From NCBI GenBank assembly GCA_048939465.1, contig JBHLPL010000006.1:1-32000 (forward strand): DNA of 32,000 nucleotides, written 5' to 3'. Position numbers and translations under genes: made by a program. Position 1 is the stretch's first letter. The number at the start of each line of letters is the position of its first letter. The notes below the pieces were generated by a model that saw only the letters and a list, made by a program, of their open reading frames with translations, had not been told where the DNA came from and did no database searches. Of this stretch, positions 6,080 through 18,820 are shown one piece after another. This stretch comes from Promethearchaeota archaeon. GTDB taxonomy: Archaea > Asgardarchaeota > Odinarchaeia > Odinarchaeales > JBHLKK01.

Positions 6080-6769
6080 CTAGAAAGCCTTTGTGTTCTC
6101 TATCCTAAACTCCCTCTGTTTTCCTAAACGTTCACCACACTCTGGACAGAACTGAGCTTCTTCTCCGACCTTAGCCCCGCAGATTGCGCAATAATCATCA
6201 TTTGAGCTTCTCCGATTATCAACCCTATTGGAATCGCCTTTAACACTGAGGTTCTCAAGAATTTCGAAATTGAATTCTGGCTCTTCCACATTTGATTCTG
6301 AAGGTTCTGTAAAGAGCGAGGATAAATCTACAGTCTCCTCATTTTCAGTCTCTCCTTCAACATCAATTATCTCCTCATTGTCCACCCGAACAGAGGATAT
6401 CCAGCCGAGGTCGGCCTCTTTCGAGCTCATTCTCTCCTTTGCAGCGTTTATGATACGCTTGTGAAACTCACTTTTCAGACGTTTGTAGTCTTCTTTGGTT
6501 AATCCGAGCAGCTTCAAAGCCAAATCCCGTTCAACACAAGGTTTCTCCAGACCACAACAGTAGGATAGACTACCATAGCAGGTTATTGCAGAGGCTTCAT
6601 TTTCAATGGACGTTTTTATAGGCTCTATCCTCCTGTTTCCTATGAGCAAGAATTCTCCTGACTGTTTTATGTTTAATAGGGCTTCTGCCTGAACTGCATC
6701 CAGTACATCTTCTGCCGAATAGATGTTGCCGTTAATCACAATAATACCCTTGGAATTATCGTACATCAC
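6080..6769 (-). CDS. Cys-rich protein with a methanogenesis-marker-9-like motif and a C-terminal zinc ribbon
   Basis: CYGSLSYCCGLEKPCVERDLAL motif; C-terminal CAICG...FCPECG; GGTGAGG SD before GTG. Confidence 0.7.
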   Translation of the reverse strand: MMYDNSKGIIVINGNIYSAEDVLDAVQAEALLNIKQSGEFLLIGNRRIEPIKTSIENEASAITCYGSLSYCCGLEKPCVERDLALKLLGLTKEDYKRLKSEFHKRIINAAKERMSSKEADLGWISSVRVDNEEIIDVEGETENEETVDLSSLFTEPSESNVEEPEFNFEILENLSVKGDSNRVDNRRSSNDDYCAICGAKVGEEAQFCPECGERLGKQREFRIENTKAF

Positions 6770-7036
6770 GCCTCACCAAAATCCAACATGAACAAGCAAG
6801 GTTTCTTCTCTCTGAAAAATAAATGTTGACTCGATTTAGGTAGTTCTAACGGATTAATCCTCTTCCTTCCCTGTTTTTGGCGCCCCTGACACTACGTGGA
6901 TAATACCAGAAGATACCAGTAAGAGCAAAAAGCAACAAAAGGAAATTACTTCTTGTCTTCTGACCTCTGATCGGACTCTCTTGGGAAAGCAAAGATTTAA
7001 ATATAACACCGTTATAATATCTCTCGGGAGTTGTAC

Positions 7037-8221
7037 ATGAAGAGAACGGTATATATGGACAATGAGAGATCAACTCAAGTGGCAAAAGAAGTCTTAGACT
7101 CTATGGTTCCCTACTTCACAGAGTATTATGGTCATCCGGCTTCAATTCATGGACTGGGAGAGCGAGCGCATGATGCAATTGATGAAAGTGCAGAGACAAT
7201 AGCTCGATCAATAAATGCAGGATCCAATGAGATCGTTTTTACCTCAGGAGGGACAGAGGCAAGTGATTTGGCAATAAGAGGCATCATCTACGCCAACAAA
7301 GACAAGGGTAGACACATGATTACGTCTAGAATTGAGCATCCATCAGTGATGAGAATAACAGAAGAGCTTTCAAAACAAGGGTTTGAGGTCGACTATGTCA
7401 ACGTAGATGAGAAGGGTTTCGTAGACCTAGAGGAATTGCAGCAGCTGATTAGAGATGAGACTGTTTTGGTAAGCATAGCGCATGCAAACCACGAGATTGG
7501 ATCGATTGAGCCAATAAAGGAAGTAGGAGAGATATTAAGAAACCAGAATCATAAGATATATTTTCATGTTGATGGCCAGTCATCCTATACAAGACTCCCC
7601 ATAGATGTTGCAGAATTCGATCTGGATGCATTAACGCTAAGCGCACATAAAATACATGGTCCCAAAGGTGTGGGTGCGCTCTATCTGAAAGAGAAGACAA
7701 AGATTGATCCGATACTCTTTGGATATGTCTCGCTATCAACATTAAGACCCGGAACAGAGAATGTCCCAGGAATAGTCGGCTTTGCAAAGGCTGCTGAGAT
7801 AGCTTTAAAGAATATCGATGAATATGTGGCTCATATGAGGAGTCTAAGAGATGAATTGCTTGAAAGGATCGGAGAAACTATCCCTGAGACTTTGCTTCAC
7901 GGTCCGAAAGGAGACAGGCGAAGTCCGAGCAATGTTAATTTCTCTTTTAAGTACATAGAGGGAGAATCAATAATGATGTATTTGAATATGAATGGGGTGT
8001 ATGTATCAACAGGCTCTGCTTGTGCGTCACGAAAACTGGAGCCGAGTCATGTCCTGACAGCAATAGGAGTGCCAATAGAGATTGCACATGGATCAATACT
8101 GTTTGCTCTAAGCAGGTATAACACGAAGGGTGATGTTGAATATGTACTCGAAGTTCTCCCGAAAGTTGTTGGCCATCTGAGAAGTATGAGTCCCTTATGG
8201 GACAAAAAGCACGAGAGGTAG
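7037..8221 (+). CDS. iscS: Cysteine desulfurase, group I (IscS/NifS)
   Basis: FTSGGTE, PLP-lysine motif SAHKIHGPKG, catalytic STGSACAS loop; GGGAG SD before ATG 7037. Confidence 0.95.
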   Translation: MKRTVYMDNERSTQVAKEVLDSMVPYFTEYYGHPASIHGLGERAHDAIDESAETIARSINAGSNEIVFTSGGTEASDLAIRGIIYANKDKGRHMITSRIEHPSVMRITEELSKQGFEVDYVNVDEKGFVDLEELQQLIRDETVLVSIAHANHEIGSIEPIKEVGEILRNQNHKIYFHVDGQSSYTRLPIDVAEFDLDALTLSAHKIHGPKGVGALYLKEKTKIDPILFGYVSLSTLRPGTENVPGIVGFAKAAEIALKNIDEYVAHMRSLRDELLERIGETIPETLLHGPKGDRRSPSNVNFSFKYIEGESIMMYLNMNGVYVSTGSACASRKLEPSHVLTAIGVPIEIAHGSILFALSRYNTKGDVEYVLEVLPKVVGHLRSMSPLWDKKHER

Positions 8222-9005: not shown

Positions 9006-10142
9006 GTGGACGAGATGGAAATCACTTCATTCAAGATAAGGTATCCAAAGTTGGAGGATGACTGTACTCTTGTCAAAGGTGTCGTCAGGAGTCTAGAAGA
9101 GATGAGAGAAGATGAAATAACTTTTGTCGAACCATGTGCTGCAGAGGTAGGAAGGCTCATGGCCAAAATAACCCTTTCTGATGAGAAAGCTCAGAAACAG
9201 GGACTCTTTTTCGACAAGAGTATGTTGTGCGAGCTCTTTGAAGCATTTAAGGAGAGATTCTCCGAATTTGAATGCAGTAAGCTATTAGGCATAGTCAGGA
9301 TAAAATGGAGAGGAAAGAACATATCACTCTTTGCTAGTGGCAGAATAAAAATCTCAACAGCCTTGAGTGAGGAGGACATCATGCGAATGCTTCACGATAT
9401 CACTCGCTTGTCGTGGGGGGCAATGATCTGCAGCGTTTGCGGCAGTCCGGCGATATATTGTGCTTCCGGAGCCTGCAATAAGTGTATTATTCACCAAGGA
9501 GATGAAACAAAAGAGGCCTTTGTCAGCGGCAAGCTACCAGGTCTGATTCTGACAAATGCCCTAAACCAAATGGACCAAGCTATAAAAGAGCTGGAAGTCA
9601 ATTATGAGAGACTCTTAAATAGGTTGATTAAGCAAGAGAAGAGTGACATATCACTTAGAGCTGCCTTGAAAAAGACATTGAAGACAGCCCAACTGAGCTT
9701 AGAATATATTCTTAGAGTAAGCAGCCCCGAAGATGCCCTAGCAGGATTCATGGTGTTGGGTTCTTCATGGAACCTCAGAACGGTGCTTGAAGCCGTGAAA
9801 TGTATCTATGAGGAGATGGAAGCAGTCTGTGTCTTCTTTCAGGAAGTTGATAGAACTCTTAGAGATTCTCTGTATAGTCTGTTAACGGGAGTGAATACAG
9901 TTCTTTCAATACTCTCTACCGGCTTCATGATCTTTGATAGAGAAGCCAGAGATTCTCTCGAAAGAAGAATCGGACTTCTCAAGAAAAGATTTCAAGACTT
10001 CAATAGAGGCAGTTTAGAGACACCAAAAAGACAAAAGGTTTTAGATACCTTGATCCATCTTATTGACTCGTTCTTAGCATTTGCACATCACCTATCCAAG
10101 ATTCTCGGGGTGGAGTCTTTTGACAAAGGTGGAAGAGATTAG
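9006..10142 (+). CDS. Hypothetical protein with a five-Cys cluster and a helical C-terminal half
   Basis: 378 aa; CSVCGSPAIYCASGACNKC; its 3' end overlaps the sufS start. Confidence 0.8.
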   Translation: MDEMEITSFKIRYPKLEDDCTLVKGVVRSLEEMREDEITFVEPCAAEVGRLMAKITLSDEKAQKQGLFFDKSMLCELFEAFKERFSEFECSKLLGIVRIKWRGKNISLFASGRIKISTALSEEDIMRMLHDITRLSWGAMICSVCGSPAIYCASGACNKCIIHQGDETKEAFVSGKLPGLILTNALNQMDQAIKELEVNYERLLNRLIKQEKSDISLRAALKKTLKTAQLSLEYILRVSSPEDALAGFMVLGSSWNLRTVLEAVKCIYEEMEAVCVFFQEVDRTLRDSLYSLLTGVNTVLSILSTGFMIFDREARDSLERRIGLLKKRFQDFNRGSLETPKRQKVLDTLIHLIDSFLAFAHHLSKILGVESFDKGGRD

Positions 10143-11343
10143 AGCAGACTTTCCCATTTTGAGAAAGCGAAGGAAAAGAGATGATAAACCGTGCATATAT
10201 CTTGATAATACTGCGACAAGCCTGAAGCCCAGGCAGGTGATAGAAGCAATTGTGGATTACTACGAAAATCACTGTGCGAATATCCATCGTGGGGTCTACA
10301 GACTCTCTCAAGAAGCCTCCAGACTTTACGAAGAAGCTCATGATACGGTTGCCAAATTCATAGGTGCAAGGAATAGGACTGAGATGAGTTTTGTTAAGAA
10401 TACAACAGAGGCAATAAACTACGTAGCGTATGGAATTGATTGGAAGCCTGACGACACGGTCATAGCCTCGGTCATGGAACATCACAGCAACATTGTTCCC
10501 TGGCATCTAATAAGAGAGAAATTCGGGATAAAGATAAAATACGTGCCTTTGAGAGACAACTGGTACCTTGATATTGACCAGTTGGAGGCATTAATTGATG
10601 ACAAAACCAGACTTGTCACAGTAACTCAAGTATCCAACGTCGTTGGCACCATCAATCCAATTGAAAGGATATGCAAAATTGCTCACGATCATGACGCTCT
10701 ATGTCTTATTGATGCTGCCCAAGCAGTCCCTCATATGCCGGTAGATGTCAAAAGGATCGGGTGCGATTTCTTGGCGTTCTCAGCCCATAAGATGCTTGGC
10801 CCCACCGGAATTGGGGGATTATACATTAAGGAAGGAATAGCGGAGCAGTTGTGTCCAACCTTAGGCGGAGGAGACATGATACGGAACGTCACACTGGAAA
10901 GCTGTGAATGGAACGTAATGCCTTGGAAATTCGAGGCAGGAACACCAAACATAGCAGGAGGAATTGGGCTCAAAGCTGCAGTAGATTACTTAAACAGCCT
11001 GGGTATGGAGTGGGTAAGGAATCACGAAAAGGAACTGACAGGATATATGCTGGAGCAGCTCGAAGGAATCCCGAAAGTCGAAATCTATGGGCCGCGAAAT
11101 GTAGAAGAGAGGGGGGGTGTATGTGCATTCAATGTTGAAGGGTTGGATGCTCATGATGTCGCCACTTTCTTAGATGAAATAGAGAACATAGCTGTCAGAT
11201 CAGGAGTTCATTGCGCACAACCTCTACATAATACGCTTGGCATTCCAAGAACTGTGAGAGCATCCGTATACGTATATAATACGAAAGAAGAGACCGAGAA
11301 ACTGTGCGATACCTTGAAAACAATATCTGAAGAACTAGCATAG
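10120..11343 (+). CDS. sufS: Cysteine desulfurase, group II (SufS/CsdA)
   Basis: IRADFPIL, YLDNTATS, NIHRG, SAHKMLGPTGIG, FEAGTP and RSGVHCAQP; GGGGTGGAG SD before TTG 10120. Confidence 0.95.
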   Translation: MTKVEEIRADFPILRKRRKRDDKPCIYLDNTATSLKPRQVIEAIVDYYENHCANIHRGVYRLSQEASRLYEEAHDTVAKFIGARNRTEMSFVKNTTEAINYVAYGIDWKPDDTVIASVMEHHSNIVPWHLIREKFGIKIKYVPLRDNWYLDIDQLEALIDDKTRLVTVTQVSNVVGTINPIERICKIAHDHDALCLIDAAQAVPHMPVDVKRIGCDFLAFSAHKMLGPTGIGGLYIKEGIAEQLCPTLGGGDMIRNVTLESCEWNVMPWKFEAGTPNIAGGIGLKAAVDYLNSLGMEWVRNHEKELTGYMLEQLEGIPKVEIYGPRNVEERGGVCAFNVEGLDAHDVATFLDEIENIAVRSGVHCAQPLHNTLGIPRTVRASVYVYNTKEETEKLCDTLKTISEELA

Positions 11344-11555
11344 TTTAGAGCATTGCATTTCCTTTTGAAATACTGGTTTCTAAAAAGAAGCGCTACTATG
11401 TGCCTGCGGATCCTAAATAAGCTCGAACATTCAGTTAGATAATTTTCGGGGGGCAGTTCTAGAAAAACTGAGTAATTATCAATCAGAAATGCTCCTTCTT
11501 CAGTTTTACAGACTAGCTGTGAGTTAATCTTTATAATGAATCTTGTGCTCTAGTC

Positions 11556-11579
11556 TCAGTTGAATCAGAAACCAACTGA
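11556..11579. promoter_or_regulatory. Possible operator inverted repeat downstream of the moeB TATA box
   Basis: TCAGTTG-N10-CAACTGA lies about 20 nt after CTTTATAA (11529-11536). A related AAAACTGA-N28-TCAGTTTT is at 11464-11507. Confidence 0.3.
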
Positions 11580-11596
11580 AATAAGGCCGGATCTGC

Positions 11597-12328
11597 ATGT
11601 TATCAAAGGATGAATTAGCGAGATATGATAGACAAATTAGATTGCACAAGTTTGGTGTGGAGGGACAGACGAAACTTAAGAGGACAAAGGCTTTTGTTGC
11701 CGGCATCGGCGGTCTTGGATCTCCTGTGCTGTCATACCTGACATTAGCCGGGATTGGTAGCATATACTTGGCGGATGGCGATGTCGTGGAATTGAGTAAC
11801 TTGAATAGGCAAATCCTACACTGGACAAGGGACATAGGTAATAAGAAAGCTAGGTCGGCAAGAGACAAGCTTCTAGAAATGAATCCGAATGTCGAAACTA
11901 GAAGTCTCGCAGAAGTTATAACGGAGGATAACGTATCAGCGCTGGTCGGAGACAGTGATTTGATAGTTGATTGCATGGATAATTTCGAGACGAGATATTT
12001 GCTGAATCGAGTCGCATTGGAGAGGGAAATACCTCTTTTTCATGGAGCCGTCTACGGCTTCGAGGGACAAGCTACAACAATTATTCCCGGAAAAACACCA
12101 TGCCTGAGATGTATCTTTCCTGAAGCCCCGCCTAAAGAGGTTTTTCCAGTAGTCGGGGTCACGCCTGGTGTTATCGGTTGTATCCAGGCAATGGAAACAA
12201 TAAAATATGTTGTAGGAATTGGAAACTTGATAATGAATAGGCTCTTAGTATTCGATGGAATAGATATGGAATTTATGAATATTGAGGTTAAGAGAAATCC
12301 GAATTGCTCAGAGTGCGGAGATAGATAA
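11597..12328 (+). CDS. moeB: E1-like adenylyltransferase (MoeB/ThiF/HesA family)
   Basis: RYDRQI, GIGGLG, DGDVVELSNLNRQ, DCMDNF, zinc motifs CLRC and CSEC. Confidence 0.93.
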   Translation: MLSKDELARYDRQIRLHKFGVEGQTKLKRTKAFVAGIGGLGSPVLSYLTLAGIGSIYLADGDVVELSNLNRQILHWTRDIGNKKARSARDKLLEMNPNVETRSLAEVITEDNVSALVGDSDLIVDCMDNFETRYLLNRVALEREIPLFHGAVYGFEGQATTIIPGKTPCLRCIFPEAPPKEVFPVVGVTPGVIGCIQAMETIKYVVGIGNLIMNRLLVFDGIDMEFMNIEVKRNPNCSECGDR

Positions 12329-12355
12329 TTCGTCGAGCGTCGAGATTCAGTGGAA

Positions 12356-13840
12356 TCATATTAGAACCAATGTTTTCGAGAATAACTTCTTGAGTTCAGA
12401 TGATGGTTCGCTGCTTCTTCTAAGTATATTCAGAGTGATTTTAAGAATTGCAAAGGCAGCCAAGTCCGTGATTCTGTCTCCGCTTTCCGCGGCGTCCTTG
12501 GCTGTGCTTCTTATGATTTCAAAGAACTGCGTGTTCAGATCTCTTTTCTTCTCTTCAATCTCCGTGTTGAGTGTCCCCAAAATTGCACCTATGTTCAAGC
12601 TCATTGAGTTCAGATTCTGCGGCAAATCCGTCGATACGATTTCACATCCCTCAAGACTTAGCACACGAATACCTGTTCGCCTTATTAGTATTCTTTTGAT
12701 TGAAGGGTTATCCCTGATCTTAGTCAGTGTTCTTATGAGATGTTCAATCCCCTTGACTAGCGTTTCTTGTCTTGTCTTTAAAAGATTCCTTGCAGATCTT
12801 ATGAAAGGGAGAAATATCTCTGTATGCATGTATCGCTGATTCTTCGGGTCGCCTATCCAGACTTCTTCCTCATCAATTGCATTTTTGGCAGCACTGTATG
12901 TACTGTCTTCCACATCCTGAATACCGGAGAAAATACTGCCTAACACATCCTTATAACTCTCACTCGTAAGAGTGTTTCTGAAAGCTTTGCTTCCCTCTAG
13001 TCCTCTTGCCAGAGCAGTATCGAACTCACATATTCTTTTGAGATTCTCAAATAGCTTCGCCATAGATGAGAGCCCTTCAGAGACTCCTTGTATGATGATG
13101 TTTGAAGGAAGGCGCAGCGTTGGATCTACTTCTTCTTTTCCGTATCTTAGGAAATCGTTATAAAGATGCATCACTTTCTCGTTTTCCTTTCTAGTACTTT
13201 GCATGACAGCCAGTGTCTTATCCATTTCCGCCTGTAATCCTTTTATGGCTTCCTTGTTCCTCTCAATGTTCTCCTTGAGGTCGAGTTTGTCTTGAGTCAA
13301 TATTCTGATCTTGTGATTCAGTGCGTTGATTTGATTCGTCTGATCGACTGTTTTGTATGATAACTCAGCGTTTTCTTCCTTCAGCGCTTTTGTGTCTTCT
13401 TCAAGGAGGGTAATACGATTCTGTTTCTCGCTCAACTGATTCCGCATAGCGGAAATTTCATCTTGCGTCTTGACCAGCTGAGTCACCGTTTCGTCAAGGG
13501 GGTGAAAAATCACATTAACACGATTCTTTAATTCATCGATTTTACCTTGGATCGTAACCTGTTTTTCTTGGATGCTCTCTCCTTTAATATCCTTCTCAAT
13601 AGTCCGTATTACGGAAGAGACAGTATCACCTTCTCCCTTTGGCAATTGACCGGTTAGCAAAAGCTGATTTAGCTGTCTCTTTAGCATATCAATACTATCA
13701 TTAACCTTGGCAATGCTTTCTTTTTGCCCCAGCATATCCAAATCGATTCTTTTTGTCTCTTTGACGATTTCGGATAGTTGAACAATTAGTTTCTTCAGAT
13801 TGTCGTACGCATTTCTAAGTGATTGGGGCATTTCTTGCAT
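12356..13840 (-). CDS. Uncharacterised long coiled-coil protein, third gene of the tubulin operon
   Basis: 494 aa with near-continuous heptads at about aa 115-230. GGTGA SD before ATG; begins 29 nt after the tubulin stop. Confidence 0.85.
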   Translation of the reverse strand: MQEMPQSLRNAYDNLKKLIVQLSEIVKETKRIDLDMLGQKESIAKVNDSIDMLKRQLNQLLLTGQLPKGEGDTVSSVIRTIEKDIKGESIQEKQVTIQGKIDELKNRVNVIFHPLDETVTQLVKTQDEISAMRNQLSEKQNRITLLEEDTKALKEENAELSYKTVDQTNQINALNHKIRILTQDKLDLKENIERNKEAIKGLQAEMDKTLAVMQSTRKENEKVMHLYNDFLRYGKEEVDPTLRLPSNIIIQGVSEGLSSMAKLFENLKRICEFDTALARGLEGSKAFRNTLTSESYKDVLGSIFSGIQDVEDSTYSAAKNAIDEEEVWIGDPKNQRYMHTEIFLPFIRSARNLLKTRQETLVKGIEHLIRTLTKIRDNPSIKRILIRRTGIRVLSLEGCEIVSTDLPQNLNSMSLNIGAILGTLNTEIEEKKRDLNTQFFEIIRSTAKDAAESGDRITDLAAFAILKITLNILRRSSEPSSELKKLFSKTLVLI

Positions 13841-13869
13841 GGTATCACCATCAAAGAGCGAGGCATAAC

Positions 13870-15144
13870 TTACCCACTTTTTAGATTGTCGTAGGTCTCA
13901 ATTATGTGTTGAAAAGTATCCCTTGCCTCTCTCAACTGATCTCTTGACACTCCTTCTTCCTCGTAGTGGCTTATATACCAGTTTCTCTCAAAAAGCGAAT
14001 CGAAGTTCTCCAGAACATGTTTGAATGCATCGGTTATTGCTACGTTGTTTGCAAGTAGCGTAATCTCTTTTTCGAAACCGGTGGGACTGCTCTCGCAGAT
14101 GCCATATTTTAGGCCTAAGTCTGGATGAACTCCAGGAACATAGTCCACAGTAGCTCTTATCTCATTCATAATATTGTAGATATTGTCTATTGATATTTCG
14201 CCCCGAAACATTATAACGGAAGATATTGCTGAGCCTTTATCATTACAGCTAACCATGAAATGGCTTGGGTCAAAACAACGTTCTATAAGATCTAATTCTG
14301 TAGCATCTTTCCCTTCTTCCTTGGTCAGGGGAGCCACCGCAGGAATGATGAACTTTGTCTCGGGAAGCGCAACCAAATTATGAGCCATCTCCATAAGATC
14401 CATATTCAGCTGTCCTGGGAATCTGAGAGACGCAGTTATGGATGCCATGACTCTGCCTATCAGAAAGTTAAGGTCAGAGAATTGCTTTATGAAGGGTTGA
14501 TTAAATATATCCTTCACTATTCGCATCAAAGCACTGTTATCGAACATGACGCATATGTCTGCATGTTTCATTAGATGGGTTATACTCAAAACCGTGTTGT
14601 AAGGAGCTATTGTGATGTCGTTCATACGAGCGGGCAAGACACTGAACGTCATAACACCTTTTTCCGGAAACTCCTTCTTCAGCGTTTCAGCAATTAAGGA
14701 ACCAAACCCACTTCCAGTACCTCCGCCAAGCGTATGGATTATTATAAAACCCTGTAATGTGTCTGGGACTGTGGTTTTGATTTTCTCTAGGAGGTTTGGG
14801 ATTAATCGCTTCCCAAGCTTATATCCCGTGGCCCAGACGTTATGAGCCCCCGAATAACTGAGTAACATAAGCTCTTCTGAAAAGAATTTATCAAGACCTT
14901 TTTCGCGTACCAGAAACTCAACGGCCAGTGGCTCGAGGTCAATGAACAAAGATCTTGGATGGAACCCATCCGGTGATTCGACGAGGAAGACAGATTTGTA
15001 GTCAACAATATCGGAATCCTCTTCCTTCTTCTGCAGAGTCTTCATGTCAATTCCATGTTCCGAGCATATAGTATTCCAGAAATTATAACCTATTTGATTT
15101 CCGCCCTGCCCAACATGTAGGACAAGTATCTCTCTACCAGGCAT
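13870..15144 (-). CDS. Eukaryote-type tubulin (OdinTubulin-like archaeal tubulin)
   Basis: REILVLHVGQGGNQIG..FW..I..EHGID, PRSLFIDLEP, GAHNVWATGY, LQGFIIIHTLGGGTGSG, APYNTVLS, DNSAL, LRFPGQLNMDL, and tubulin-specific C-terminal helices H11/H12. ATG 15144 is preferred over 15150 on SD spacing. Confidence 0.97.
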   Translation of the reverse strand: MPGREILVLHVGQGGNQIGYNFWNTICSEHGIDMKTLQKKEEDSDIVDYKSVFLVESPDGFHPRSLFIDLEPLAVEFLVREKGLDKFFSEELMLLSYSGAHNVWATGYKLGKRLIPNLLEKIKTTVPDTLQGFIIIHTLGGGTGSGFGSLIAETLKKEFPEKGVMTFSVLPARMNDITIAPYNTVLSITHLMKHADICVMFDNSALMRIVKDIFNQPFIKQFSDLNFLIGRVMASITASLRFPGQLNMDLMEMAHNLVALPETKFIIPAVAPLTKEEGKDATELDLIERCFDPSHFMVSCNDKGSAISSVIMFRGEISIDNIYNIMNEIRATVDYVPGVHPDLGLKYGICESSPTGFEKEITLLANNVAITDAFKHVLENFDSLFERNWYISHYEEEGVSRDQLREARDTFQHIIETYDNLKSG

Positions 15145-15161
15145 CAGCATCGCCTCTCATT

Positions 15162-16802
15162 CTATTCCAAACTAGATTTCTTTCTTGTTGAGTAAATTCT
15201 GTGTAGTTTTTTTGTAATGGTCTTACATGACGCATCATTTGATACGTATTTTGCAAAATACTCGTAAATATCATCGTAAGTGACATTGCCCATAAGCTTT
15301 TCTTTCAGCATCTCCACGCTCACAACAACGGAAAGTTCATCTGTATCAATGACGGTAACCGACGGATTGTAGGCGACGTAGATTCTCAGAACAGGATCTG
15401 AAACCGCGTTGACTTCTCCTCTTTTTATCCATCCACGCTCACCAAAACCTTTCAGCGCATTATTCACAAGGTCAATATCCTCTTCGTAAAGTGTTATTGG
15501 AAGAACGCCATGCGTTATGAAGTCCTCGCCGGTATATTTCTGTGGAATGCAGTCCACAAACATCGATATGCCTCTTATAGTTTCCTTGTTTATCCTTGAA
15601 GATCTCATTCGTATGCAGCTCTTGAGGGGTTCGTATGCCTCGATTAGGAAGCTTCCGAGCAACATGAGTTTTCGTTTAAGCTCATCCCAATCATAAGCGT
15701 TTCCATCTCCCTGAATCCATCTGTCCAGTATTATGTCAAAGTAGCTCATCAGCAATGGAGAAGGGTTCTTTAGGTTTGAGAGCAGATCTTTGATATTCTT
15801 TATGCTCGTAGAGATCGGATCTGCGATCTCTTCTAACTTCTTAGCAAAATCTTTCTCTCTTTCAGCATATTCAGAATGATCTGTCTTAAAGCTGGATATG
15901 AGCAGGTTCATTAGCTTGACTGCTCCGTCGATATCATGATTCTTAAGAATCACCCTGGGACTGATTCCTGCAGAAACGAGCATTTGCACACCTCTAACCA
16001 GTGCGATTTCTGCGTCTTTCATGTTTTCAAGGATTGGGACAGCTTTCTGCAAATACTCGTCATCAACTTCTTCCATTTGAACCTCAATCATGAACTTCTC
16101 AAGGAAGCTTTTCAGATTTCTGTTGAAGAATTTCTGCTCACTGTCAGTTATTCCTCGGACTTTCTCCGACATTTTCCTTAATTTGCTCATAACCTCAGAG
16201 CGAATCCTGATTCTTCTTTCCAAATCCCTTCTGAATTCCTTATGTTCAGAGAATTTCTTCTCAGCATTCCCTATGATTTCCAGAATCAGATCGTATTTCT
16301 CATCAACTGACTCTATGTTGCTCTTGCCTTCGGCGACCGCTGTCTTGAGCGGTCCAAGAGATGCGTTTATGCGAGATATCGCTTTTATGGCTTCGTCCAT
16401 TCCTCCCCACGATAGGTCCATGCTCTTCATCATAGCTTCCAGACTATCAAATGCGATCAAAATCTCCTCACAGCCTTTTTCCAGATCCTTCGCTCTGCTT
16501 AATACTGAATCTAGCAGCAAACCATCTCCTCGGTTTAATGTATTTTCCAGCGTTTTCAAATATGCCTCCAATTTCTTCAGCTTCTTTTTTGCGCCACCAA
16601 AAATGCCTCTTATTCCTTTCCGGACTTCTTTTACCTGCTTGGCTTCTGTTTTTAGCCCTTCTGCCCGTGACCGGAGTTCATTCAAATCTTGGGTTATTTG
16701 TCCGGGCACAAGACCTAAGGAGTCGGCCACCTTTTCCCTAAGCCATAGCCTTCGCATAAACTGGTCAATTCTTTCATTCAAAGCTTTCTGAGCTTTTTGC
16801 AA
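15162..16802 (-). CDS. Uncharacterised helical/coiled-coil protein with an alpha/beta C-terminal domain, first gene of the tubulin operon
   Basis: 546 aa, amphipathic helices over about 400 aa. GGGGT SD before TTG; its stop is 11-17 nt before the tubulin start. Confidence 0.85.
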   Translation of the reverse strand: MQKAQKALNERIDQFMRRLWLREKVADSLGLVPGQITQDLNELRSRAEGLKTEAKQVKEVRKGIRGIFGGAKKKLKKLEAYLKTLENTLNRGDGLLLDSVLSRAKDLEKGCEEILIAFDSLEAMMKSMDLSWGGMDEAIKAISRINASLGPLKTAVAEGKSNIESVDEKYDLILEIIGNAEKKFSEHKEFRRDLERRIRIRSEVMSKLRKMSEKVRGITDSEQKFFNRNLKSFLEKFMIEVQMEEVDDEYLQKAVPILENMKDAEIALVRGVQMLVSAGISPRVILKNHDIDGAVKLMNLLISSFKTDHSEYAEREKDFAKKLEEIADPISTSIKNIKDLLSNLKNPSPLLMSYFDIILDRWIQGDGNAYDWDELKRKLMLLGSFLIEAYEPLKSCIRMRSSRINKETIRGISMFVDCIPQKYTGEDFITHGVLPITLYEEDIDLVNNALKGFGERGWIKRGEVNAVSDPVLRIYVAYNPSVTVIDTDELSVVVSVEMLKEKLMGNVTYDDIYEYFAKYVSNDASCKTITKKLHRIYSTRKKSSLE

Positions 16803-16902
16803 ATGCCTTCTACCCCTTATTAAGAATGCGAGCTATCAAGCAAATCTTTGTAAGTATTAAGACAAAAACCTTTCGTAATTATTACTAACCAAAGAGTTTC
16901 CC

Positions 16903-17736
16903 TCACAAGTCAGAATTCTCGAGAAGTTTCAGACCCTTCACGTGTATTTTAATAACTGCAAAAGGAGATTTTATTGCGGATATGATATTAAATCCACAAG
17001 AGTGACTTAGCAATCTTTCTGCCGTTTTCAGTCCCTTTTTTGAGTAGGCCCTAATAATCTTCTGAAATGGAGGACTTCGTCTATTAACGTAGTAGTAGGT
17101 GTTTAGTAAGCTCCATTTGGCAGCTTCCCGTATGAATCTTCCCGCTTTTCTATCAAGGAGAAATGCCAGAAAACCGGAGAGGCTAAGAAGAACGCACATT
17201 AACAGACTTTTAAGCCACTGCTTGATATCAATATCGTGCCTTCTAATACTACTTGAAATGTCATCTCCGAATACCGTTACAACATGACTCAAAACAGAGT
17301 TAAACACCAGTTTTGACGGGGCAAGAATCTTCCCGAAAGTCCGACTTATTGAAAAAACTCTTTTGAAATCTCCTCTTAAAATGTCACCCTTTCTACAAAT
17401 AAAATGTGAGGCGAACATGCCTGTGGCTCTCTCAATAGCTCTAAACAGGCGTTCTATTCTTGTCTTTGCAGGTCTGGAGAATCCCAGAGTTGTCTCAAGA
17501 CCTTCAGCTATTCTATCAACTTTGTCAATTCTCCTCTGGCTAACAGGATCATCCAAGACTATTATCAAATCAAGGTCACTCTTTTCCGGGTCTGCGTATC
17601 CTTTCGCGTAAGACCCGAACAGCAGAATTGAGATTATTCTGTCAGCTGCTGCCTTTTTGACCATCCTGATCAGAGTATCCAAATAAGTTCTGGCCTTTTC
17701 AGGCAGTAAGATTGATCCCGGTTGTGCTTTTTTCAT
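16903..17736 (-). CDS. Pol-beta-superfamily nucleotidyltransferase with a C-terminal helical domain
   Basis: ILLFGSYAKG...SDLDLIIV (GS...DxD motif). Confidence 0.85.
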   Translation of the reverse strand: MKKAQPGSILLPEKARTYLDTLIRMVKKAAADRIISILLFGSYAKGYADPEKSDLDLIIVLDDPVSQRRIDKVDRIAEGLETTLGFSRPAKTRIERLFRAIERATGMFASHFICRKGDILRGDFKRVFSISRTFGKILAPSKLVFNSVLSHVVTVFGDDISSSIRRHDIDIKQWLKSLLMCVLLSLSGFLAFLLDRKAGRFIREAAKWSLLNTYYYVNRRSPPFQKIIRAYSKKGLKTAERLLSHSCGFNIISAIKSPFAVIKIHVKGLKLLENSDL

Positions 17737-17820
17737 CTAAATCACTTGTGATTGCTGAGAGTCTCTGGGTTGAAGGTTCAGCCAATTTTACCCCGTAGGA
17801 GGGGGTGATGCTACGCGTGT

Positions 17821-18080
17821 GAGTTACTCAAGACTCCCTAAAGAGCATCCTTCTCCCTGCTTCATGCGTTTGAGGACACTTCGGCTTCAAAGAGATGAGG
17901 TTTCTGTACTGCTAATCCAGGGCTACACAGAAGGGCAAAACTTCTGTCTGATTCTCCGTACACTGTGTATCAGGCACTTACGTAGCTCTGTCAGGGGGAA
18001 ATACCGTCAAGACCTGTGTTCTCAGATTGTGTCTTGCGCTCATGCCGCTGATCAAAGCTCCTCTTGCGAGTACCTTACCC
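17821..18080 (-). ncRNA. Candidate structured non-coding RNA (~260 nt), family unassigned
   Basis: TTTAAA box 29 nt upstream (18109-18104). Nested helices CAAGAC/GUCUUG, ACAGAAG/CUUCUGU, CUGAU/AUCAG, CAG-GCUAC/GUAGC-CUG, a long-range GGUAUUUC-CCCUG/CAGGG-GAA-AUGCU helix and 5'/3' end pairing. G-U pairs favour the minus strand; no credible ORF. Confidence 0.55.
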
Positions 18081-18208
18081 AAAACCTAATTACCGAAAAA
18101 TCATTTAAAGGTACCGCAACTCACTCTTTGCCTCTCGAGTTAAGAACGTTTGCGGAGAATGTAGTAAGGACTTCGCAATTCAGTTAGAGGATCACTGTAT
18201 GCCTTCAT

Positions 18209-18820
18209 CTACACTGTTGCTCTTCTTGCCCGAGGAATCCTTTCAAGCTTTCTCTTCAGTCTTTCGAAATTAGTCCTCAGCTTTTCCAGAAGGGCATCAG
18301 CATTATCAAACTCCTCATCTATTATTGCTCTAAGGAACTTATTGACTTCAGAATTATGCTTTCTTGAGTTATAACCAATTAATTCGAGAATAGCTTCAGT
18401 TCTATCCAGTGAGGATCTACAGCCTTCAGTCACTTTGTTAATCACTGAAAGATTCTTTTCCATTTCTGATGTAAGTTCTCTGTCTTGTTCCATAGCGCTT
18501 AGTGTGTATTCAAATCTCGGCAATACGAAGAGTCTTAATTTTGACTTCAGATCTTCCTTGCTTTCTAAGGTCTTGTATAAGACTTCCAATACTGATTTTG
18601 CATAGCAACAGACTTCTTTCCTCGCTTGTATCCACTTCTCAAGCGCTTTCAAGGCGACTAATGCTTCGGAGAAGGTTTTTATGAATTGATCAAGTCTGAT
18701 TTCCATAATCGGACTTTCCGACTTTATAGGATCGGGGAAATTCAGAAAAATAAAGGATGTGCCATCCTTGATCATTCTGCGGAATTCCGATAATCTTTCC
18801 ATGATGGACTCTTTGCTCAA
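18209..18820 (-). CDS. Hypothetical helical protein
   Basis: 203-aa ORF, amphipathic helices, GGGGGG SD-like site before TTG. Confidence 0.75.
   Translation of the reverse strand: MSKESIMERLSEFRRMIKDGTSFIFLNFPDPIKSESPIMEIRLDQFIKTFSEALVALKALEKWIQARKEVCCYAKSVLEVLYKTLESKEDLKSKLRLFVLPRFEYTLSAMEQDRELTSEMEKNLSVINKVTEGCRSSLDRTEAILELIGYNSRKHNSEVNKFLRAIIDEEFDNADALLEKLRTNFERLKRKLERIPRARRATV

Follow-up and report, generated by a model that had tools for sequence, protein, structure and literature searches.

Two orphan protein families flank an Odin-type tubulin and may form a dedicated cytoskeletal module with it

A 32,000-nucleotide (nt) stretch of a Promethearchaeota archaeon genome (contig JBHLPL010000006.1, positions 1 to 32,000; hereafter, the window) was found to encode an orthologue of OdinTubulin between two long genes of orphan, lineage-restricted families, designated here partner A and partner B. 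With moderate confidence, the three genes are interpreted as a dedicated cytoskeletal module that is particular to the lineage of Odin-type tubulin, in which A would occupy the lateral face of the tubulin and all three components are inherited together. The source contig belongs to a 1.96-Mb metagenome-assembled genome that is 91% complete. In the list of open reading frames (ORFs), the trio appears as three head-to-tail reading frames of 546 (A), 426 (tubulin), and 494 (B) amino acids (aa) on the minus strand, as follows.

16802..15162, minus strand: partner A; 546 aa from a TTG start; orphan family with helical bundles and a C-terminal alpha/beta domain
15150..13870, minus strand: orthologue of OdinTubulin; 426 aa if the first ATG is used, but probably 424 aa, starting at the ATG at 15144
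13840..12356, minus strand: partner B; 494 aa; orphan family with a long coiled-coil helix and an all-helical C-terminal domain

The product of the middle gene matched the Pfam families PF00091 (Tubulin; 162.9 bits against a cut-off of 33, E = 1.4e-47) and PF03953 (Tubulin_C; 60.2 bits against a cut-off of 26.6, E = 2.9e-16). Its closest solved relative was OdinTubulin, with 704 bits to PDB entries 7EVB/7EVH and about 77% identity in the alignment, whereas BtubB, AtubB, and the eukaryotic beta-tubulins reached 261 bits at most. Translation from the second ATG (15144) gives the N terminus MPGRE, which is common to OdinTubulin and all of its orthologues, so that the real product is probably the 424-aa form and the spacer from A is 17 nt. 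The protein carries the GGGTGSG motif and a T7 loop, NMDLMEM, with a glutamate (E254) in an invariant column, and it has no acidic tail. A genome-wide search identified this one true tubulin plus two weak FtsZ-like matches. Judged by its sequence, the middle gene encodes an Odin-type tubulin, an orthologue of OdinTubulin and of the homopolymer type.

The arrangement A-tubulin-B was conserved within the GTDB class to which this genome belongs. The class comprises seven species genomes, six of them with an Odin-type tubulin, and in all six a full-length A gene lies directly upstream and a full-length B gene directly downstream of the tubulin gene. In the remaining genome (82% complete), the contig stops after a nucleotidyltransferase gene and the first 54 residues of A, so the assembly interrupts the cluster. 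Among the six is a closed genome of 1.42 Mb, and its tubulin matches that of 7EVB (954 bits over 425 residues); the gene of the crystallised OdinTubulin is therefore itself flanked by A and B. Only six proteins were retrieved when 1.84 billion representatives were searched exhaustively by HMMER with a profile of partner A. The two divergent full-length proteins among these six were traced to metagenomic contigs, and in both the gene order was nucleotidyltransferase-(KaiC-like)-A-tubulin-B. An earlier note on this DNA had proposed that the flanking genes are dedicated to the tubulin and had suggested examining synteny around OdinTubulin-like genes; the proposal is borne out by the adjacency in six species genomes and two divergent metagenomic lineages, with A and B standing beside the tubulin wherever it was found and assembled.

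The partners were as narrowly distributed as the tubulin. Within a set of 400 Asgard genomes, Odin-type tubulin and full-length copies of A and of B were each confined to this one class. None of the other approximately 390 genomes scanned contained a full-length A or B, and the remaining Asgard matches to either protein covered coiled-coil or helical N-terminal parts only, with weak E-values. Within the lineages that have the trio, the A-tubulin spacer ranged from 6 to 40 nt, and the tubulin-B junction ranged from an overlap to 29 nt. Identity between lineages was 69 to 80% for tubulin (69 to 75% for the window tubulin against the other Odin-type lineages), 22 to 46% for A, and 22 to 35% for B. 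In comparison with the sister species, the ratio of nonsynonymous to synonymous substitution rates (dN/dS) was 0.02 for the tubulin gene, 0.04 for the A gene, and 0.13 for the B gene, dS being saturated; by this measure purifying selection acts on each member of the trio. The partners thus diverge much faster than the tubulin, yet purifying selection on them persists. The flanks of the trio were rearranged while the trio was kept: in the family of the class typified by LCB_4, a KaiC-like ATPase gene precedes A and an HMA-thioredoxin gene follows B, and the window genome has neither of these at its trio. DNA nearly identical to 12356-16802 of the window also occurred in metagenomes that several studies had obtained from mangroves and sediments, so this Odin-type tubulin lineage is not restricted to hot springs. 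The proteins of the sister genome carry the source labels "Hodarchaeota" or "Promethearchaeota archaeon."

A complex of A with a tubulin monomer was predicted in three runs, with family alignments supplied for both proteins and with three controls. The interface score ipSAE (interaction prediction score from aligned errors) was 0.60, 0.62, and 0.62 in the three runs, and the best of the three controls scored 0.00. In the calibration of the predictor, 58 of 80 solved complexes reached this mark, as did 2 of 110 mismatched pairs; these counts apply only approximately here, since the prediction was run with alignments of our own. At least 92% of the contacts agreed between the runs, and the predicted local distance difference test (pLDDT) of the partner was at least 83. 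Recall of a known complex by the predictor is unlikely because no solved complex resembles A. Multimer prediction, which the earlier note had proposed as a check for each partner with tubulin dimers, came out for A and a tubulin monomer in favor of an interaction.

On the A side, the predicted interface was formed by the C-terminal domain only (residues 405-416, 424, 430, 452-466, 489-490, and 518-525). Eight of the 27 interface residues of A were invariant over four lineages (P = 0.0014 over the whole protein). On the tubulin side, the interface comprised residues 209-220, 278-296, 303-305, 330, and 334, which by position we take to be H6 and the H6-H7 loop, the C-terminal half of the M-loop with H9, the H9-S8 loop, and H10. 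According to Akil et al. (2022, PMC8956254), an insert at 280-282, used in contacts between protofilaments, is present in microtubule tubulins and missing from OdinTubulin. The predicted footprint of A covers this insert region, and the mapping is consistent with that of Akil et al. Taken together, the models support direct binding of A to tubulin, with the C-terminal domain predicted on the lateral M-loop/H9 and H6-H7 face.

The AlphaFold2 model of A, built from the family alignment, had a pLDDT of 86 and a predicted template modelling score of 0.66. It consisted of about 400 residues of antiparallel helical bundles followed, from about residue 400, by the alpha/beta domain, with strands at 458-460, 482-486, and 491-495. 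Two parts of the protein stood out.

15165..15620, minus strand: C-terminal domain of A, residues 395-546, the predicted tubulin-binding module
16563..16634, minus strand: basic glycine-rich segment of A, residues about 57-80, between helices, with G63, K72, and K73 invariant

On sequence evidence, conservation within A is highest in the C-terminal domain: 15% of its columns were invariant over the four lineages, compared with 7% in the rest of the protein, and the invariant positions included the motif G454-x-R456-G457-W458-x-K460, E463, and K518-Y519. The basic glycine-rich segment lies within a region (residues 51-100) with a net charge of +7, and the hydrophobic moment of A peaks at residues 57-68; the lowest pLDDT of the model also falls in this segment (54 in the block 61-70).

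The model of B was weaker (pLDDT 73). It contains a long continuous helix with heptad periodicity above that of shuffled sequences, followed by an all-helical C-terminal domain, and it ends in a short conserved peptide.

13133..13639, minus strand: continuous helix of B, residues 68-236, from DSSP of the model and a heptad scan
12359..12400, minus strand: extreme C-terminal peptide of B, residues 481-494, kept in all lineages behind a variable linker

The helix at 68-236 is likely to form a dimeric coiled coil, as judged from the model. In the terminal peptide, S481, L483, K485, L486, F487, L491, and L493 were invariant, and the pLDDT was below 50 for residues 479-494; the peptide is a candidate docking peptide or membrane-targeting helix. 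The description of both partners in the earlier note as coiled-coil rods holds for B with its long continuous helix, but not for A, which is modelled as a compact stack of bundles with an alpha/beta end.

Relatives of A and B were sought with sequence profiles and by fold. Neither protein reached a Pfam or NCBIfam cut-off, and only coiled-coil families appeared below threshold; for B these included SMC, myosin-tail, and Rad50, matches that are typical of coiled coils. No helix-turn-helix or winged-helix Pfam family matched either protein. Fold searches with A (Foldseek against PDB, VIA-wide, AlphaFold Database clusters, and the Atlas by shape) and with B (AlphaFold Database clusters and Foldseek against PDB) returned generic helical-bundle or coiled-coil entries in the noise range only, and vinculin/talin-like and EzrA-like bundles appeared in the fold searches at noise level only. 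Feature searches of the Atlas with A 395-546 and B 240-494 gave no usable match. A word-indexed search of 5.8 billion proteins with two profiles of A (A1 and A2) and one of the C-terminal region of B found only close relatives annotated as "hypothetical protein." Pfam, Foldseek against PDB, VIA-wide, AlphaFold Database clusters, and the Atlas gave no likeness of A or B to gamma-tubulin complex proteins, stathmin, or TOG domains, helical proteins of this size being hard to match. A and B were also considered as paralogues of each other, and this was unsupported (BLASTP E = 0.25; hhalign probability 30% over 48 columns). By these searches, A and B are orphan, lineage-restricted protein families.

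If the module exists as proposed, the C-terminal alpha/beta domain of A would sit on the lateral face of tubulin, against the C-terminal half of the M-loop, H9, and H6 with the H6-H7 loop, and the N-terminal stack of helical bundles would project outward, bearing the conserved basic glycine-rich loop. A would then decorate protofilaments at the place where OdinTubulin lacks the insert that serves the lateral contacts of eukaryotic tubulins, and it would thereby set protofilament packing or anchoring. B, most likely a dimeric coiled coil with a helical end domain, may link the A-decorated polymer to another structure, of which the membrane would be the most plausible; the terminal peptide of B or the basic loop of A may reach it. 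Membrane anchoring would fit the speculation by Akil et al. that membranes are shaped by Odin tubules (PMC8956254). The role of B as a whole, the anchoring at the membrane, and the influence on how the polymer is built are parts of the scheme that we infer. The data lend no support to the roles as nucleator, cross-linker, or DNA segregation machine that the earlier note had suggested.

Several considerations weigh against this reading. The class is small, with seven species and two metagenomic lineages, and the surroundings of the trio are partly syntenic; synteny alone is weak evidence because the widespread nucleotidyltransferase gene keeps its position too. The enrichment of invariant residues at the A interface is modest when computed within the C-terminal domain (P = 0.027), and the conservation of the interface is not fully independent of the prediction because the predictor saw the alignments. 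The tubulin residues at the interface are no more conserved than the remainder of the tubulin, and the prediction was made with a monomer, not a protofilament or tubule. In addition, gene spacing is the sole basis for inferring cotranscription of the three genes.

The strongest competing explanation keeps the interaction and changes its consequence: A could be a negative regulator or sequestering factor that covers the lateral face and blocks higher-order assembly (compare MinC, SulA, and MciZ on FtsZ and stathmin on tubulin). The predicted footprint, on the surface of microtubule lateral contacts, and the use of a tubulin monomer in the prediction are compatible with such a factor, as is the formation of tubules by pure OdinTubulin without any partner (PMC8956254). 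A simple cap, however, would not need a protein as large as A (62 kDa) with an elaborate and conserved N-terminal array of bundles, and the position of A upstream in the tubulin unit, with spacing that suggests coupled expression, fits a structural partner better. We regard sequestering as unlikely, and no computational evidence separates the sequestering from the decorating role of A.

A second possibility is that the adjacency of the genes is inherited gene order without a physical or functional link and that the complex score is a false positive. The genomes of the class are few and related, the neighboring nucleotidyltransferase gene is equally syntenic though broadly distributed, and some of the mismatched pairs in the calibration also reached the mark. 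The trio nevertheless stayed contiguous, with gaps of 6 to 40 nt, while its flanks were rearranged and in lineages whose partners are just 22 to 31% identical; neither A nor B occurred without the tubulin in the 400 Asgard genomes, relatives of A were as rare as the profile search indicated, and the complex score of 0.62 was above the controls. Adjacency without such a link is decidedly improbable.

It is less probable still, to the point of being remote, that the trio is a DNA segregation system of the TubZRC/ParMRC type, in which the C-terminal domain of A would be a winged-helix centromere adaptor and B a TubY-like modulator: operon-encoded adaptors of tubulin-family filaments do have prokaryotic precedent in TubZRC, the helix-helix-strand layout of the A domain (from DSSP) could be winged-helix-like, and B gives weak SMC/Rad50-type coiled-coil matches, but those matches lie far below the cut-off and reflect the coiled coil only, winged-helix and helix-turn-helix families are missing from the Pfam results, the domain proposed as the DNA binder is the one predicted to bind tubulin, the locus is chromosomal in a housekeeping context rather than on a plasmid or phage, and the idea is weakened because the region 11500-18500, in and around the unit, contains no direct-repeat arrays, iterons, or centromere-like repeats, only scattered two-copy chance matches.

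The module reading was also compared with known tubulin systems. One of these is OdinTubulin of Candidatus Odinarchaeum yellowstonii LCB_4. In the LCB_4-type genome A, tubulin, and B are arranged as they are in the window, with A at L022:10321-11940 and B at L022:7536-8990; the window tubulin differs in coming from another family of the class, and its DNA was recovered from metagenomes of mangroves and sediments, not from a hot spring. The OdinTubulin paper (PMC8956254) treats the tubulin alone, and its text mentions no operon, neighbor, flank, or gene cluster. BtubA/BtubB/BtubC of Prosthecobacter resembles the trio in combining a polymer of true-tubulin-like proteins with an operon-encoded non-tubulin accessory protein, and BtubC binds and stabilises the Btub filament (PMC9871819). 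BtubC, however, is a tetratricopeptide repeat (TPR; "kinesin light chain-like") protein, whereas the window encodes one homopolymeric tubulin with two partners, and no TPR family was found among the Pfam matches of A or B at E-values up to 0.1.

The TubZ/TubR/TubC(/TubY) partition systems of plasmids and phages likewise have a tubulin-superfamily filament with operon-encoded partners. The partners encoded in TubZRC-type operons are small, and some systems include the coiled-coil modulator TubY. TubZ, however, is a distant member of the superfamily and not a true tubulin, and TubR is a small winged-helix DNA binder that needs the tubC iterons; the window trio differs in its chromosomal location, in the lack of detected iterons, and in partners of about 500 aa with unrelated sequence. 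EzrA, a spectrin-like regulator of FtsZ, resembles A in that the N-terminal 400 residues of A form consecutive antiparallel helical bundles. The EzrA matches to A were weak by sequence (Pfam E = 0.012, 14.4 bits against a cut-off of 39.6, over 87 residues) and by fold (VIA Z of 10.5 and root mean square deviation of 10.2 over 172 residues; rank 20 in the AlphaFold Database), and they lie below the family cut-off or within helical-bundle noise, and the tubulin-contacting domain of A has no EzrA counterpart. No N-terminal transmembrane helix was found in A, in which the maximum 19-residue Kyte-Doolittle mean was 1.28, at residue 277.

AtubA/AtubB(/AtubC) of Lokiarchaeia and Heimdallarchaeia are, like the window protein, true tubulins of Asgard archaea. 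They differ in that the two genomes with AtubA/B-type tubulins contained no homologue of A or B in the 400-genome scan. Neither A nor B was found beside AtubC of L. ossiferum, where archaellum genes and unrelated proteins are encoded instead. Atub tubulins are encoded in tandem, and in trees the Odin tubulin tends to cluster with AtubC (PMC13394414, PMC13371889). In an L. ossiferum-type genome (L064:4152-5980 and 6146-7555), an AtubC-like tubulin gene divergently adjoins an archaellum set that includes two archaellins, a KaiC-like ArlH, and ArlI- and ArlJ-like genes.

The genomic setting of the trio is compatible with a single transcription unit. The A-tubulin gap is 11 nt, or 17 nt counted from the second tubulin ATG, and the tubulin-B gap is 29 nt; purine-rich strings resembling Shine-Dalgarno (SD) sequences precede A (AAGGGG..GAAGG), the tubulin (GAGAGG), and B (GGTGAT). 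Because of this tight spacing, A, the tubulin, and B are probably made from one transcript. The unit is bordered as follows.

11597..12328, plus strand: ThiF/MoeB-family gene (Pfam ThiF, 1.2e-75), convergent, bounding the unit at its 3' end
16803..16902, minus strand: intergenic region of 100 nt upstream of A, the presumed promoter of the three-gene unit
16903..17736, minus strand: gene of the nucleotidyltransferase fold, 277 aa (Pfam NTP_transf_2), upstream of A

The description of the locus in the earlier note agrees with these data in three respects: the co-orientation, lengths, spacing, and individual SD sequences of the genes; the bounding of the unit by a convergent moeB gene and a 100-nt upstream gap; and the absence of a mobile-element neighborhood, since none of the window ORFs scanned gave a Pfam match pointing to a mobile element. 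The remainder of the window consists of housekeeping genes, among them those for a family-B DNA polymerase, cysteinyl-tRNA synthetase, a Lon-like protease, and cysteine desulfurases. Rfam (gathering threshold) and tRNA scans of the whole window gave no matches. Two class-V aminotransferase (cysteine desulfurase-like) genes (7031-8221 and 10081-11343, both on the plus strand) lie less than 4 kb apart beside the ThiF/MoeB gene, an arrangement suggestive of a sulfur-relay or cofactor cluster at the border of the tubulin unit. On the other side, a 122-aa ORF at 17819-18187 (plus strand) has no Pfam match.

Two neighbors were weighed as further components. The upstream nucleotidyltransferase matched PF01909 with 37.3 bits (cut-off 21) and carries the active-site motif G-S...D-x-D, with G41, S42, D54, and D56 invariant. 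The 277-aa protein is 33% identical to the LCB_4-type copy, and its gene is syntenic in all lineages. Its C-terminal region is also conserved (K-W-S-L-L-N motif) and includes a hydrophobic stretch. The family was matched in 231 of the 400 Asgard genomes, mostly at E-values of 1e-35 to 1e-68 and over nearly the full length, a distribution on which the gene was rejected as a fourth specific component; it is probably a neighbor by inherited gene order and not part of the module. The KaiC-like ATPase of the LCB_4-type family (252 to 260 aa, KaiC/RecA-like) is encoded no more than 22 nt upstream of A or overlaps it, and it shows weak ArlH/FlaH-type matches.

L022:11963-12745, L023:6200-6958, L025:6571-7329, L026:493-1251, and L059:5196-5957: KaiC-like ATPase genes

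As the window genome has no orthologue, the ATPase was rejected as a conserved core component; in the LCB_4-type family it may be an additional, lineage-specific part of the module.

Partners of Odin-type tubulin are not described in the literature searched, in line with the earlier note, to which no characterised partners were known. The paper on Odin FtsZ makes no mention of neighboring genes. A 2023 survey of the family read genomic contexts through Pfam (PMC9871819) and was therefore blind to A and B, since contexts based on Pfam cannot show orphan proteins. A 2026 survey of Asgard tubulins gives gene maps in a supplementary figure and reports only that different taxonomic groups do not share a conserved genomic context (PMC13394414), and according to a 2026 review bacteria and archaea lack canonical microtubule-associated proteins (MAPs; PMC13406575). 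The physiological polymer and role of OdinTubulin are stated to be unknown (PMC8956254). Cytomotive filaments with operon-encoded accessory proteins are already known (BtubC and TubR/TubY); what is new here is the pair of protein families around Odin-type tubulin, which are undescribed in the literature searched.

We tentatively suggest that A and B constitute the first examples of accessory proteins for a true archaeal tubulin, with A on the M-loop/H9 face supplying or controlling the lateral contacts that OdinTubulin lacks, a proposal that goes further than the existence of the module and is held with correspondingly less assurance. OdinTubulin is a reference point for the origin of microtubules and has hitherto been studied alone; A and B are named candidates, with named residues, for direct tests with a tubulin that already expresses, polymerises, and crystallises well. 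If the binding is real, these proteins would be the first archaeal tubulin-binding proteins, and the tubules formed in vitro would have to be reinterpreted. If the wider proposal is true, the physiological Odin polymer would be a decorated and anchored array, unlike the tubules of about 100 nm formed by the pure protein, and dedicated binders of the lateral face of tubulin would predate eukaryotic MAPs and microtubule inner proteins, with an independent origin.

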